UHGV virus genome: UHGV-0123951
DNA: 36,881 nucleotides
Origin: a virus
Reading direction: 5' to 3' (one strand)
Both the position numbers and the translations under genes were made by a program. Below the pieces are notes generated by a model that saw nothing but the letters and a program-made list of their open reading frames with translations, ran no database searches and was not told where the DNA came from. How positions within the stretch are numbered: position 1 is the first letter of the stretch; each line of letters starts with the position of its first letter. This document shows positions 12,067-17,511 of the stretch, in pieces.

Positions 12067-12897
12067 ATGAATCTGGACAATGTTTTAAAGTTTTTTGCGC
12101 CTAAAGGCATGCACATCTCAGATACCAGCAGAGCGACAGCAAGTGAGCAACTTACTGTGACTGATGTAATGGCGGCACTGGGGATGACTCAGGCTGATGC
12201 GGGCATCGGGCTGGCAATGTTTCTGGGTAAAGCTTGTATCAGCAGCCAGGACAGGGAGGCGTCAATTGCCTGGCTAACGGAGTACGCGAAAGAGCATGCT
12301 CCCATGGCTATTCGTAAAGCATCAGGGAAAAAGTTTCCCCTCTGCATGCGTATCCTTGCCCGGTTTGCCTATAACGATTATTCCTCATCAGCAGCTGATT
12401 GTGTGGCATGCCCAAAATGTAGTGGTAAAGGGTTGCTTACAACCACTAAAACCGTGACTAAAAGCCATTACACAATGCGATTGCCACAATGGGCAAAAGA
12501 CCTGAGACAGTCACCATCTGACTTTGAGGTTAAGCGCGATGTAACTGACACTGATCATACGTTATGTTCCCGCTGCCATGGCACCGGAAAGTTAAGTAAG
12601 CGATGCCAGTGCGGCGGCACAGGTAAGACTATTGACCGTAAAGCGACAGAACTGCAGGGCGTACCGGTTTACAAAGAATGTAAGCGCTGTGAAGGTCGGG
12701 GATACAGCAGGCCAAAATCATCGGTTGCCTATCGCGGTGTTTTTTCCGAGTTGCCCAGTCTGCCAGACCGGACGTGGCGTTATAGCTGGAAACCATTCTA
12801 TGAAATCTTGGTGACCAAATGTTTCCAGGAGGAGAGTTATTCAAGTTCTCAACTGAACCGGGTGACTAAAAGTGAAGATGTGATAAATATCGCGTAA
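12067..12897 (+). CDS. Q-like late-gene antitermination protein
   Basis: Multiple CxxC zinc-finger-like motifs; sits directly upstream of the late promoter/terminator and lysis cassette; start at MNLDNV with GGAGAC RBS. Confidence 0.65.
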   Translation: MNLDNVLKFFAPKGMHISDTSRATASEQLTVTDVMAALGMTQADAGIGLAMFLGKACISSQDREASIAWLTEYAKEHAPMAIRKASGKKFPLCMRILARFAYNDYSSSAADCVACPKCSGKGLLTTTKTVTKSHYTMRLPQWAKDLRQSPSDFEVKRDVTDTDHTLCSRCHGTGKLSKRCQCGGTGKTIDRKATELQGVPVYKECKRCEGRGYSRPKSSVAYRGVFSELPSLPDRTWRYSWKPFYEILVTKCFQEESYSSSQLNRVTKSEDVINIA

Positions 12898-12913
12898 TTT
12901 AGCGTCACGATGT

Positions 12914-12968
12914 TTGCAATGTTGCCGTTTTTGTGTATATTTGACATTAACGATGGGCATTGTATGTT
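12914..12968 (+). promoter_or_regulatory. late promoter region (PR'-like); two overlapping -35/-10 candidates
   Basis: TTGCAA/16/TATATT and TTGACA/16/TATGTT immediately downstream of the Q gene. Confidence 0.45.
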
Positions 12969-12981
12969 CAGAGTTAAGAAG

Positions 12982-13004
12982 CCCGCCACCGAGCGGGTTT
13001 TTTT
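12982..13004 (+). terminator. tR'-like intrinsic terminator (presumed target of Q antitermination)
   Basis: CCCGC-caccga-GCGGG hairpin followed by T7. Confidence 0.65.
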
Positions 13005-13084
13005 GGGTGCTAGGCCATTCAATCTACGTCAAAATCAATGTGTTACAATAGCCGCAAGCAAAACGACAACACAAAGGCGGCATA

Positions 13085-13327
13085 ATGAAATTAACATCTG
13101 TTCATATCGAAATTCTGCGTCGCGCAAGCGCTCTTGGACCACATGAAGTAATTCAATCTTTAAATCTGCCTCACATACCAGCGGAAGCGGTAAATTTTGC
13201 TATTTCTGATCTCGCTGAGTTGGGACTGGTAAATGCTGTGCAGAGTACGTCTGAACGTGACGACAGCTGGATAGTGAATAGAATCACGTCAAAGGGTCAT
13301 CGCTATTTAAATGAACTAGAGGCTTAA
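13085..13327 (+). CDS. small AT-rich hypothetical protein (80 aa), moron-like
   Basis: Track ORF; TGTTACAAT extended -10-like element upstream and a hairpin plus T-run downstream. Confidence 0.5.
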   Translation: MKLTSVHIEILRRASALGPHEVIQSLNLPHIPAEAVNFAISDLAELGLVNAVQSTSERDDSWIVNRITSKGHRYLNELEA

Positions 13328-13362
13328 TTCACTCTCTAGTAAAACGCGGGACATAATCTATA

Positions 13363-13390
13363 GGCTGCCATTTGGCGGCCTTTTCTATTT
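13363..13390 (+). terminator. intrinsic terminator after the small moron ORF
   Basis: GGCTGCC-attt-GGCGGCC hairpin then TTTTCTATTT. Confidence 0.45.
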
Positions 13391-13494
13391 CAGGCTCTGG
13401 GAATCACCATTACTTTCACCTTTGCATAAGAGCCCAGAAGCCTGATCCTCCTTTCATCACACAGCGCCATCCGAAGAATCGGAGGTGAGAGACC

Positions 13495-13830
13495 ATGAAA
13501 ATGCACAACGACCCTCACTCCTGGACGGAGTTAATTGAGTTACTTCATAGCTGGTGGCGCGGTGATACGCCAATTGGCGCAGTTCTTTTATCGGTAGCGA
13601 TGGCTGTACTGCGGATTGCATATGGTGGCGGCGGCTGGAAAAAGATGGTGCTGGAAGGGTTGATGTGTGGCGCCATGACACTGACGGCTGTTTCCGCACT
13701 CGAGTATTTCAGTCTTCCGCAGTCACTTTCCATTGCTATCGGTGGCGCGCTGGGGTTCGTTGGCGTTGAGCAGGTGCGCTCGGTGGCCACACGCGTTTTC
13801 AATGTTCGCTTTGGTGGCGACGCCAAGTAA
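13495..13830 (+). CDS. class I holin, lambda S-like, dual-start MKM motif
   Basis: MKM start, hydrophobic segments, resemblance to lambda S (LRIAYGGGGWKK, GLMCGAMT); GGAGGTGA RBS. Confidence 0.75.
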   Translation: MKMHNDPHSWTELIELLHSWWRGDTPIGAVLLSVAMAVLRIAYGGGGWKKMVLEGLMCGAMTLTAVSALEYFSLPQSLSIAIGGALGFVGVEQVRSVATRVFNVRFGGDAK

Positions 13831-13839
13831 AGGATCCCC

Positions 13840-14457
13840 ATGAACCAACAACAATTTCAGCAGGCGGCTGGTATCAGCGCCGGGCTTTCTGCACGCTGGT
13901 TTCCGCACATTGATGCGGCAATGAAAGAGTTTGGAATCACAGCAGTAAACGATCTGGCTATGTTCATTGCACAAATTGGGCATGAATCTGCTGGTTTTAC
14001 CTCGCTGGTCGAGAGCTTCAACTACTCGGTAGACGGGCTAAAGAAAACCTTTGGTAAACGCCTGACACCGTATCAGTGTGAAATGCTGGGGCGAGTAGAT
14101 GGTAAGCAAGTGGCCCACCAGCCGCAAATAGCCAATCTGGTTTATGGTGACCGCATGGGAAATAACAGCCCGGGTGATGGCTGGAAATATCGCGGTCGTG
14201 GCCTGCTTCAAATCACCGGCCGCGAGAACTACACCAAATGCGGTTTGGCGCTGAAGCTTGACCTTGTCAGTACGCCAGAACTTCTGACGCAAGAGCGACA
14301 TGCGGCTCGTTCGGCGGCATGGTACTTCACCTTACGTGGTTGCCTTATGTATTCAGGTGATGTTGTTCGTGTCACGCAGATCATCAACGGTGGCCAGAAC
14401 GGGCTGGCTGACAGAAATAGTCGTTATAACAAAGCGCGGGCGGCGTTGCTGGTATGA
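13840..14457 (+). CDS. endolysin, glycoside hydrolase family 19 (chitinase-like lysozyme)
   Basis: GH19-like motifs ([27 protein letters not shown]); position after holin. Confidence 0.8.
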
Positions 14458-14987
14458 CAGCGGTCTTTGCTTTTGTTAAGGCGCGGTGGAATACAATCAT
14501 TGTTTTGCTGATGTTAGCTGGCGCGTTTCTTGCCGGGAATGTCTGGAGTGAGCGGGGCTGGCAAAAGAAGTGGGCTGACCGCAATAGCGTGGAATCTTCA
14601 CAGGAAGCGAACGCCCAGACCGCCGCCCGCATGATTGAACAAGGGCGAATTATTGCCCGTGATGAGGCTGTTAAAGATGCACAAGCACAAGCCGCTAAAT
14701 CTGCTGCCACTGCTGCTGGCCTGTCTGCCATTGTTAGCCAGTTGCGTACCGAAGCAACAAAGCTTGCCGCCCGCCTGGACGCAGCAAAGCACACCTCAGA
14801 TCTTGCCGCTGCCGTCAGAAGCAAAACAGGCGGAGCCAACGCAGGATTGCTTGCCAACATGCTCGGACGCCTTGCAGAAGAGGCTAAACGATATGCTGGA
14901 ATCGCTGACGACCGCTACAACGCTGGAATGACGTGTGAGCGTGTTTACGACTCGGTAAGAGAGTCGAATAACAAAAGGGTTGAATGA
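14454..14987 (+). CDS. Rz-like i-spanin
   Basis: N-terminal TM segment, Ala/Gln-rich coiled-coil-like periplasmic part; follows endolysin. Confidence 0.7.
14677..14931 (+). CDS. Rz1-like o-spanin, embedded in +1 frame of Rz
   Basis: Lipoprotein signal with lipobox LLAS-C, proline-rich mature region, fully embedded in the Rz ORF. Confidence 0.65.
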
Positions 14988-15481: not shown

Positions 15482-16939
15482 ATGCAGGTCACTATTGATG
15501 GTGTCCCGTATTTGCCTGCCTGTGCTTCAGCGTCACGGATTGGCATTGCGATTACCACCCACAACCGGGCGGACGTTTTAAAGCGTGCTGTTGAGCAGCA
15601 CCAGAAGCATCTGCCAGCCGGTGCGCTGCTGGTGGTTGTCGATGATGGTTCAAAACCTGCAGCGATAGCACCCGACGGCGTGCAACTGCTTCGCCATGAA
15701 ACATCACTCGGCATTGTTGCCTCGAAGAACGCCAGCCTGTCAGCCCTGATGGATGTCGGGTGCGAGCATCTGTTTTTATGGGATGATGATGCCTGGCCCA
15801 TCGCCGATAACTGGCATCTTCCCTACATCGAATCACCAGAGCCGCACCTGGCTTACCAGTTTCTGGATCTGGCTGGTCGCAATAAGCTGAACGACATGGC
15901 GGAGCTGTACCGTGATGATAAGCATGTTGCTTACACTGGTCAGCGCGGGGTGATGCTTTACTACCACCGCAGCGCCATCAAGAAGGTTGGCGGATTCGAT
16001 CCGGTATACGGTCGCGGCATGTACGAGCATCCCGATCTGGCGCTTCGGATTCACAACGCTGGTTTAACGTCGTGGGCGTTCGCTGATGTAGTTGGCTCTG
16101 AAAAGCTGATTCACTCAATGGACGAGTACGAAGAGGGCGTGCGCTCAATACCACGGCCTGACCGAGAGGCACTGGTAAAAAGAAACGTTGGCATCTTCAA
16201 CGCTCGACGCGACAGCGGTTATACAGGCTTTGCCTCGTACAGCAGAAATCCAAATCTAGTGATTACGACGCTGCTCACAAGCCAGCCAGACCCACAGCGA
16301 GGCAGGAAGATGAAACCCGACCCGCAGGCTCTTCAGGCTTGGGCAGATTCAATATCCGGCGCGCTGCCGATTGTCCTGGCTGACGAATTAAAAGAGTCGC
16401 CAACTGGCGCCGGTCTGTTTGAAGTCCCGCCGTTGGGCATGAGCCCATACTTTGCTCGCTGGCTTCACATCTATCAGTATCTTCGTGCCCACCCTGAATA
16501 CCATCTTGTCTGGTGTACTGACGGGACAGACGTTGAAATGCTGCGTGAGCCTTGGGCAGAGATGGCGCCGGGTAAAATTTACGTTGGCTCCGAGCACAAA
16601 ACCTACTTTGACGAATGGATGAAGGACAATCACCACGGCAAAGCTTATAGCGAGTTCTTCGAACTGCACCGGGATGAGCAACTGCTTAATGCTGGCCTGA
16701 TTGGTGGCTACCGTGAAGATGTAATGGAGTTCGCCCACCGGATCATCCGTCAGCATTACCTTATTGAAAGCCACCGCTTCTGGAAGATGGAAGCAGCTCC
16801 CGCCACGCTGGTGGACATGGGCGCTTTCGGGATGGCTGCAAAGTCATTCGGTAATCGAATCGTTACCGGCCCTCTGGTGCATACCATCTTTAAAACGGAT
16901 GGCTTCGGAAAGGAGACCGCATGGTGGAAACACAAGTGA
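15482..16939 (+). CDS. family 2 glycosyltransferase with ~250-aa C-terminal domain of unknown function (485 aa)
   Basis: GT2 signature (IAITTHNR ... LLVVVDDGS ... WDDDAW); no obvious membrane spans; GGAGAA RBS. Confidence 0.7.
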   Translation: MQVTIDGVPYLPACASASRIGIAITTHNRADVLKRAVEQHQKHLPAGALLVVVDDGSKPAAIAPDGVQLLRHETSLGIVASKNASLSALMDVGCEHLFLWDDDAWPIADNWHLPYIESPEPHLAYQFLDLAGRNKLNDMAELYRDDKHVAYTGQRGVMLYYHRSAIKKVGGFDPVYGRGMYEHPDLALRIHNAGLTSWAFADVVGSEKLIHSMDEYEEGVRSIPRPDREALVKRNVGIFNARRDSGYTGFASYSRNPNLVITTLLTSQPDPQRGRKMKPDPQALQAWADSISGALPIVLADELKESPTGAGLFEVPPLGMSPYFARWLHIYQYLRAHPEYHLVWCTDGTDVEMLREPWAEMAPGKIYVGSEHKTYFDEWMKDNHHGKAYSEFFELHRDEQLLNAGLIGGYREDVMEFAHRIIRQHYLIESHRFWKMEAAPATLVDMGAFGMAAKSFGNRIVTGPLVHTIFKTDGFGKETAWWKHK

Positions 16940-17511
16940 AGTATGTTGTGATTGGTCACCATTCCCGCTATGCCTCAGCTGCATTGCTGGCTGGCGAACT
17001 TGGCGCACACCTGCTTATCGATGAAGGGAATCACGGTGCGAACTGGAATCACCGGCGCGCTATCGAATGGGCTGCTGAGCAACCTTGCCGGGTAGTGGTG
17101 CTGGAAGACGACGCGCTGCCTGTACGTGGATTCAGAGACAAGATTACGGGCTGGCTGGCTCGTTTCCCTGGCGACATGCTTAGTTTTTATCTGGGCACTG
17201 GGCGGCCACCGCAATACCAAATGCAGATAGCTGAACGCCTGATTAATGCGGATAAGGTGAGGTCTGACTTCATTATGCTGCAACGCCTGATACATGGCGT
17301 GTGCTACAGCATACCGCCTCAAAGCATCAGCCGTGTGCTGTCTCAATGGGACTGCAGTAAGCCTGCCGATTATGCCGTGGGCGATGCTTATGGTGGCGTT
17401 GTCGTCTATCCCTGCTGGTCGCTGGTGGACCATGCAGACGGCGAACCGGTTGAGCGTCACCCTGACTCAGCTCCACGAACAGAACGCCGCCGGGCGTGGA
17501 GGTTAGCCTGA
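16921..17511 (+). CDS. hypothetical protein, possibly GT-A-like (196 aa)
   Basis: VVVLEDDALP segment resembles a DxD-type motif; AGGAGA RBS; overlaps the glycosyltransferase stop. Confidence 0.45.
   Translation: MVETQVKYVVIGHHSRYASAALLAGELGAHLLIDEGNHGANWNHRRAIEWAAEQPCRVVVLEDDALPVRGFRDKITGWLARFPGDMLSFYLGTGRPPQYQMQIAERLINADKVRSDFIMLQRLIHGVCYSIPPQSISRVLSQWDCSKPADYAVGDAYGGVVVYPCWSLVDHADGEPVERHPDSAPRTERRRAWRLA

Follow-up and report, generated by a model that had tools for sequence, protein, structure and literature searches.

The small open reading frame that lies between the late terminator and the holin gene of UHGV virus genome UHGV-0123951 raises the question of whether it is the first gene of the late operon or a self-contained unit that moves, and is expressed, on its own. 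The DNA analyzed, called the window below, is the whole stretch of 36,881 nucleotides (nt). It is identical to the metagenome contig ENA ERZ783771 NODE_99 and is the genome of a Citrobacter-type lambdoid prophage. The reading frame, designated ORF80, codes for 80 amino acids (aa). Taken as a whole, the locus is best explained as a moron, an autonomous promoter-gene-terminator cassette situated between the late terminator tR' and the lysis genes, and this explanation is considered probable. The cassette is bounded by intrinsic terminators on both sides and reassorts independently of the modules that contain the antiterminator gene Q and the holin gene.

A moron is defined by a sigma-70-like promoter, a factor-independent terminator, the presence of extra DNA in comparison with close relatives and a different G+C content (PMC3714127). 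The modularity of the ORF80 cassette, its deviating GC content and its promoter/terminator layout match this definition at the level of the sequence, the promoter being recognized by its motif only. The GC content is 42.4% in ORF80 and 42.3% in the cassette, compared with 51.0% in the window, 48.5% in Q and 54.5% in the holin gene. The initial annotation had described an AT-rich reading frame of 80 aa; the frame is there, and its richness in AT is only modest. The absence of the gene from close relatives is expected of a moron and does not count against this interpretation.

About 70 related loci from Citrobacter, Escherichia coli and Klebsiella prophages were compared. With relatives down to 31% identity included, they were found by exact protein look-up, in 34 viral contigs of IMG/VR and, by means of the promoter block described below, in more IMG/VR contigs; others came from the isolated Klebsiella phages ST405-OXA48phi1.2 and vB_VIPKPNMC05 and from E. 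coli strain 1943. A peptide-pattern scan of a contig collection with one genome per species found no relatives, and the family is strain-variable. Throughout the related loci the synteny comparison reveals a discrete cassette that always lies directly after the Q/tR' region, and the Q gene is immediately upstream, on the same strand, in 34 of the 34 IMG/VR loci. The cassette extends from about 13016 to 13391. Its left homology edge, at 13016 just after tR', is seen in comparison with E. coli 1943, whose Q belongs to another family (PF06323). The right edge falls at about 13377-13391; sequence similarity to mEp237 and to several E. coli prophages, none of which has the gene, begins again at 13362-13377, where the cassette terminator lies, and extends through the holin leader. 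Three Q families, PF03589, PF06323 and DUF1133, are paired with the cassette, and it is followed by at least four holin types: PF05106, PF16931 together with PF05449, a lambda-S-like protein of 82 aa, and a 92-aa protein accompanied by a signal-arrest-release (SAR)-type endolysin.

The position between tR' and the holin gene had been proposed to be a cargo slot, and the comparison bears this out: in relatives that share Q or the holin leader with the window, unrelated genes are found there. A gene for 178 aa occupies the slot in locus L002, which has the same Q, and one for 213 aa in mEp237, which has the same holin leader. In loci L029, L099 and L100, also with the same holin leader, the slot is filled by minus-strand genes. 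No relative with an empty slot was found among the related loci, which points to replacement rather than simple insertion. L011 and the distant L026, both with different flanks and L011 also with a different holin, retain the downstream hairpin, GGCTGCC-N4-GGCRGCC, with one G-C pair changed to G.U. Promoter, reading frame and terminator move across the related loci as one unit, which supports the interpretation of the initial annotation as a self-contained gene. The elements of this unit and their context are arranged in the window as follows.

12067..12897, plus strand: gene for antiterminator Q (PF03589 Antiterm, 2.3e-45; phrog_127, 1.9e-91); context, outside the cassette.
12913..12954, plus strand: PR'-like late promoter from a consensus scan, with the -35 element TTTGCA (12913-18), a 17-nt spacer and the -10 element TATATT (12936-41).
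12978..13004, plus strand: late terminator tR', with a stem of 9 base pairs (bp) (12978-12986/12993-13001), a CCCGC/GCGGG core and T7 at 12998-13004.
13019..13039, plus strand: conserved 21-nt block TCAATCTACGTCAAAATCAAT, at about -37 to -17 of the predicted promoter; candidate operator or promoter-specific element.
13041..13049, plus strand: putative extended -10 element TGTTACAAT, assigned from motif position and conservation; predicted transcription start at about 13056-13057.
13050..13084, plus strand: leader, in which GCCGC (13051-55) can pair with GCGGC (13077-81), overlapping the Shine-Dalgarno sequence AAGG(CGG).
13085..13327, plus strand: ORF80, from ATG 13085 to TAA 13325-13327, 80 aa; predicted minimal winged-helix protein, short branch of DUF2513.
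13362..13391, plus strand: the cassette's own intrinsic terminator, AGGCTGCC-ATTT-GGCGGCCT followed by TTTCTATTTC.
13392..13830, plus strand: holin leader (to 13494) and gene for a lambda-S-type holin (13495-13830; PF05106, 9e-32); context, right-hand boundary.

The reading frame is thus found where the initial annotation had placed it, between the late terminator and the holin gene, and it is followed by the hairpin and T-run described there: the hairpin at 13362-13381 has 8 bp, six of them GC pairs, and a folding energy of -14.9 kcal/mol. The span 13030-13390 given for the unit holds or touches its elements, but the conserved promoter block begins slightly upstream of it, at 13019. On the other side of the block, tR' folds with -13.5 kcal/mol (z = -2.84 for 12948-13012), and a terminator is present at the equivalent position in all related loci.

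The extended -10 element that had been suspected upstream of the gene is conserved across the related loci. The motif TGnTAnAAT is found 27-37 nt upstream of the ATG in every family locus whose upstream region was readable, namely in 10 of 10 protein-fetched loci, 34 of 34 IMG/VR loci and 22 further contigs that bear the block. It is kept in Klebsiella phages at 31-34% amino-acid identity, and it persists although at least three unrelated types of upstream sequence surround it. Within the Citrobacter/E. coli clade the block and the extended -10 element together are identical in 29 of 31 nt (94%), while in the same comparisons the nucleotide identity is 84, 76 and 56% for the reading frame and 53-83% for the leader. 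Of the 25 IMG/VR contigs that contain the 20-nt core of the block, 22 have it immediately before a family member, and in the remaining three it is a chance match inside unrelated coding DNA. As judged from these alignments, the promoter region is the most constrained part of the cassette and belongs to the ORF80 gene. That the block is better conserved than the gene itself points to tight regulation. The consensus scan did not list the extended -10 element because its -35 region is poor, and the significance of the element comes from its conservation and not from the motif alone.

The window contains no second copy of the promoter block: there is one exact site, and partial 12-14-mers occur in coding regions at chance level. 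A search for dyad symmetry in 12990-13095 found only one inverted repeat, which is 6 nt long and is not conserved. It was also noticed by eye that AATCAATGTGTTA (13033-13045), which overlaps the extended -10 element, fits the core consensus WATCAANNNNTTR of integration host factor (IHF). This IHF-like core is retained in the Citrobacter/E. coli clade and is absent from the Klebsiella clade (clade B).

The geometry of the locus argues for dual expression, from the cassette's own promoter and by Q-antiterminated read-through from PR'. In the lysogen, sigma-70 RNA polymerase would start at about 13056 under the direction of the extended -10 element and would stop at 13381-13391, producing a monocistronic mRNA of about 330 nt. 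The terminator tR' would shield the cassette from the constitutive PR' promoter, whose short transcript would run for about 56 nt from a predicted start near 12949, and the cassette's own terminator would shield the holin gene from the cassette promoter. After induction, Q-modified polymerase would pass both terminators, and the gene would then also be present at the 5' end of the late transcript. The distance of only about 56 nt from PR' to tR' is short; the 6S RNA of lambda is much longer. The PR'-like promoter sequence is common to L002, L021 and L004. Downstream of its -10 element are TTGACA and AACGATGGG (12949-57), which look similar to the sigma-dependent pause box of lambda PR'; the AACGATGGG box is also found in phage mEp237.

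The leader may distinguish between the two transcripts. The minimum-free-energy fold pairs 5-9 nt located right after the -10 element with the Shine-Dalgarno region in seven of seven leader types, and the pairings differ with the type: GCCGC/GCGGC in the window, TCC..TGGT/GCCA..GGA, TTCTGT/ACAGGA, GCCCT/GGGGC and others elsewhere. Shuffle tests of the hairpin gave combined p = 6e-4 and 8e-5, and one double change in the stem, T.T to G-C, is found in L044. The 5' arm of the hairpin is upstream of the predicted own start site of the cassette, so that the hairpin could form only in PR' read-through RNA. In this longer late RNA it might mask the ribosome-binding site, and these findings are suggestive of lowered translation from the read-through transcript.

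The product of the cassette belongs to a small family. A search with the single sequence found seven clusters among 5.8 billion proteins, and an exhaustive profile search found seven representatives among 1.8 billion. A broader profile collected about 40 clusters of short members (74-89 aa), all of them from Citrobacter, Klebsiella and E. coli. Among 5426 complete E. coli genomes, 41 encode an 89-aa variant (51% identity), for which the annotation says no more than "hypothetical". ORF80 matches phrog_32916 with 2.4e-21. Pairwise ratios of nonsynonymous to synonymous substitution rates (dN/dS) are 0.33-0.68, and by this measure ORF80 is a real gene under purifying selection. Two near-identical cassettes, L001 (4070-4312) and L016 (4001-4243), differ by seven nonsynonymous substitutions (codons 24, 27, 46, 55, 61, 72 and 77) and no synonymous one, while their 600-nt downstream flanks are 99.5% identical; the 7:0 ratio hints at fast evolution of the protein but is non-significant alone (p ~0.15 by estimate). 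The C-termini of L086 and L087 (NSFLINIES and NSYLIDLES) are recombinant and indicate mosaicism inside the reading frame.

Remote homology searches tie ORF80 to DUF2513, and fold comparison ties it to the winged-helix folds of PadR and MarR. The match to DUF2513 (PF10711) scores 27.8 bits, under the gathering threshold of 29.6, and spans no more than positions 24-81 of the 100 in the model; in precomputed tables the DUF2513 flag on the identical protein is only "weak". All 11 of 11 relatives, however, match PF10711 at E <= 0.1 (best 3.4e-28), and the family profile retrieves the canonical PF10711 proteins of 116-127 aa with E from 1e-10 to 1e-4. On these profile matches, ORF80 is best described as a short, divergent (truncated) branch of DUF2513. 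The search of NCBIfam returned noise only, and that of PADLOC-DB returned only weak matches (E >= 0.0025) to the winged-helix tail of CARF/Csa3 models. Marginal winged-helix matches in the sequence search of the PDB were RPC6, an RNA polymerase III subunit (0.007), and YjcQ (0.39). Literature searches for DUF2513 and PF10711 found no papers.

An AlphaFold2 model built from seven sequences has a predicted local distance difference test (pLDDT) score of 92 and a predicted template-modeling (pTM) score of 0.82. It contains a helix (residues 5-15), a one-turn helix (about 24-26), a third helix (33-45), a beta-hairpin wing (49-53/62-67) and a C-terminal helix (69-79), and the elements follow one another in the order helix, strand, short helix, helix 3, wing and C-terminal helix. 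ORF80 is, by confident prediction, a minimal winged-helix protein, and its family keeps one fold down to 31% identity. The best Foldseek matches in the PDB are all winged-helix regulators of the PadR and MarR type, with template-modeling (TM) scores of 0.62-0.70 and E of about 2e-3 to 1e-2; among viral models the matches are uncharacterized winged-helix proteins. The invariant residues are those of the hydrophobic core together with T68 and G71. Helix 3 is the most conserved segment of the protein, and VNFAISDLA is invariant in clade A.

For the role of the protein within the moron, it is quite possible, and we propose tentatively, that ORF80 is a small dimeric regulator that would bind the conserved 21-nt block over its own promoter and so regulate itself, possibly with other targets in host or incoming-phage DNA. 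If it is a regulator, it would be an accessory regulator expressed by the prophage and would not have a lysis or morphogenesis function. The fold neighbors, which are DNA-binding regulators, the extreme conservation of the block and the conservation of helix 3 speak for this proposal, as does a co-variation between clades, in which helix 3 of clade A (NFAISDLA) is paired with block TCAATCTACGTCAAAATCAAT and helix 3 of clade B (AIEQL) with block AAAATAGCCACTCCAAAA. Several observations weigh on the other side, with respect to both the regulator and its promoter. The co-variation is effectively a sample of n = 2-3 and could be due to shared ancestry, and with a single copy of the block in the window no regulon is visible. 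Taken by itself, the extended -10 motif does not exceed chance frequency in the window (TGNTAHAAT has 4 matches where 3.1 are expected), and the -35 region is poor. For the leader hairpin, the shuffle tests were made post hoc, and two of six leader types drive their result. None of 11 family members matches the MarR or PadR models PF01047, PF12802 and PF03551 at E <= 0.1, and one of the 11 matches HTH_27, with E = 0.013, below threshold. The whole family is acidic, with isoelectric points of 4.6-6.3 and net charges of -1 to -7, and its helix 3 and wing are without a conserved Lys or Arg, an atypical feature for a surface that recognizes DNA. ORF80 should not be filed as MarR or PadR, since the tests with the family hidden Markov models fail and the conserved basic contact residues are absent. 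The acidity of the family throughout favors another interpretation of the same moron cassette, according to which the winged helix is a protein-binding module, that is, an inhibitor or adaptor expressed by the prophage against a host factor, a defense component or a competing phage protein, and the conserved promoter block is read by another host or phage factor. The exposed face of helix 3 has E34, D42 and E45 and no basic residue, the tip of the wing (SERDDS) is acidic and variable, the dN/dS values are relatively high, the substitutions between the near-identical cassettes are all nonsynonymous, and the best match at the sequence level in the PDB, RPC6, is a non-canonical winged helix. However, overall acidity is common among PadR-type regulators, the top fold matches are without exception regulators that bind DNA, and the substitution ratio has no significance of its own. 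No partner gene travels with the cassette either; the genes that follow in the E. coli and Klebsiella variants are unrelated to each other. A protein-binding role is, on balance, somewhat doubtful.

A more elaborate form of the regulator proposal takes ORF80 to be a dedicated winged-helix factor that lambdoid phages in Citrobacter, Klebsiella and E. coli retain as the first element behind tR'. It would be expressed in the lysogen, would have its translation gated by the promoter in use and would bind the block, which follows tR' at a distance of 14 nt. Ribosomes would have access to their binding site in the short transcript from the cassette promoter, but in Q-dependent read-through RNA the leader hairpin would mask it. 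ORF80 bound to the block would act as an autoregulator and, at the same time, as a roadblock or insulator, so that in the prophage leaky transcription from PR' would not reach the lysis genes; alternatively, it would act in trans against superinfecting phages. This combination is improbable. It is also improbable that the gene has no expression of its own and simply opens the Q-dependent late operon, serving a late or lysis function such as lysis timing, TGnTAnAAT being incidental or a sigma-dependent pause site. In about 70 loci from three genera the gene invariably lies directly behind tR' and ahead of the lysis cassette, and it is necessarily transcribed by Q-modified polymerase. Yet in most lineages an intrinsic terminator separates it from the holin gene; at least four unrelated holin types and several endolysin types follow it, with no specific lysis partner; it is missing in close relatives whose holin or Q is the same; conservation is higher in the promoter block than in the coding sequence; and the leader may mask translation in the late transcript. 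A dedicated lysis role for ORF80 is unlikely because of the terminator before the holin gene, the lack of a constant lysis partner and the phages with the same holin that do without the gene. There is also the view that the reading frame is due to chance and that the functional unit is a non-coding RNA or a spacer between two terminators. The frame is short (80 codons), is annotated only as "hypothetical protein" and falls just below the Pfam gathering threshold. It is, however, preserved at 31-100% identity in more than 40 protein clusters, its dN/dS is less than one, it has the phrog_32916 match, and a confident structural model is obtained from only seven sequences. There is no Rfam family in the region, the scan of 12600-13800 at E <= 1 having returned only a chance Trp-leader match (E = 0.15). 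The chance-frame explanation is effectively refuted.

The moron interpretation can be compared with known systems. The ORF80 cassette resembles the morons of lambdoid phages (lambda bor and lom; HK97/HK022) in its promoter motif, its terminator, its place between late-region genes, its deviating GC content and its replacement among relatives. Unlike these, it carries a gene for a small cytoplasmic winged-helix protein rather than for an envelope or virulence protein, it has kept to a single slot, directly after tR', in three genera and with three Q families, and its promoter block is more conserved than its coding sequence. Shiga toxin (Stx) phages such as 933W and H-19B carry Shiga-toxin, tRNA and other cargo between Q and the holin gene S. 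This is the same slot, downstream of PR'/tR' and upstream of the holin gene, and its contents are swept into Q-dependent late transcription. ORF80 shares with the Stx-phage cargo a possible promoter of its own, and its cassette adds a downstream terminator of its own. There is no relation between ORF80 and Shiga toxin in sequence or in fold, and a scan of the whole window for tRNA and tmRNA genes found none.

At the level of the fold, ORF80 has the same order of elements as MarR and as the short type of PadR with a single C-terminal helix (TM 0.62-0.70 to 6abt, 5zi8, 3bpv, 6pcp and others). In contrast to MarR, the 80-aa protein is without the N- and C-terminal dimerization helices, and in contrast to both families its helix 2 is cut to one turn, which is followed by an LPHIPA loop, and its helix 3 and wing are acidic. 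DUF2513 (PF10711) and YjcQ (PDB 2HGC, from the SKIN prophage of B. subtilis) are, like ORF80, uncharacterized winged-helix families that are often found in a prophage context. ORF80 differs from canonical DUF2513 proteins by lacking the C-terminal extension of about 40 residues and by having NFAISDL in place of the helix-3 motif YH(I/V)xLL.

In some relatives a second gene follows the winged-helix gene. In the 89-aa E. coli variant the next gene, before the holin, codes for a 264-aa multi-pass membrane protein (L034 4480-5274; F9792 and 40 other complete genomes). Behind the winged-helix gene of this variant the hairpin has lost its T-run, and the two genes may be co-transcribed. In some Klebsiella phages, too, a multi-pass membrane protein is encoded between the winged-helix gene and the holin gene, as in the Klebsiella IMG/VR contig L056 (1858-2433), where it has 191 aa. 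These two membrane proteins show no relationship to each other and no matches in Pfam or PADLOC, and they are candidate superinfection-exclusion or abortive-infection cargo. The idea that the winged-helix protein is a regulator of the adjacent membrane-protein gene was rejected, as the following genes are unrelated, the Klebsiella gene lies behind a separate terminator and the window has no such gene.

The neighboring genes of the window have several features of their own. Q has 276 aa from ATG 12067, in agreement with the gene calls in identical contigs, and its frame is open from TTG 12037. It contains a zinc-finger stretch of the DnaJ type, CXXCXGXG (PF00684, 5.8e-7, below threshold). In the lysis cassette the gene for the lambda-S-type holin is followed by those for a GH19 endolysin (13840-14457) and an Rz-like spanin (14454-14987). 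MKM at the start of the holin is a dual-start motif like that of lambda S. Its leader of about 110 nt (13385-13494) is 79-87% identical in E. coli and Klebsiella phages with quite different upstream cargo. Within the leader the CCGAAGAATCGG hairpin (13471-13482) overlaps the Shine-Dalgarno sequence GGAGG and is reminiscent of the lambda sdi structure, which sets the holin/antiholin ratio. The Rz-like gene contains an embedded reading frame in the +1 frame (14635-14931, plus strand) with the lipobox LLASC, a proline-rich tail and a match to phrog_11621, "Rz-like spanin" (1.9e-6); it is probably the Rz1-type outer-membrane component of the spanin. Between the lysis cassette and the terminase are two plus-strand glycosyltransferase-like genes, 15482-16939 (phrog_1579, 7.9e-226) and 16921-17511 (phrog_854, 1.3e-70). 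Both fall into the "moron/host takeover" category and constitute a second cargo block, possibly a serotype-converting one. Several phages that share the module of Q, ORF80 and lysis genes are without them.

The ORF80 locus combines a known kind of moron architecture with an uncharacterized small winged-helix family as its cargo, and current understanding is not overturned. Mildly surprising are the position after tR', kept over three genera and three Q families, the stronger conservation in the promoter than in the gene, and a ribosome-binding site that may be masked depending on the promoter in use. The cassette, with its clean boundaries, is a good example of a moron, and its slot is the one in which Stx phages carry Shiga toxin. 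Promoter-dependent masking, if true, would offer a phage an elegant means of confining a gene to the lysogenic state in spite of its location in the late operon. If the cassette is transcribed in the lysogen, it would add an uncharacterized winged-helix family to the accessory factors that prophages express in clinically relevant Enterobacteriaceae.

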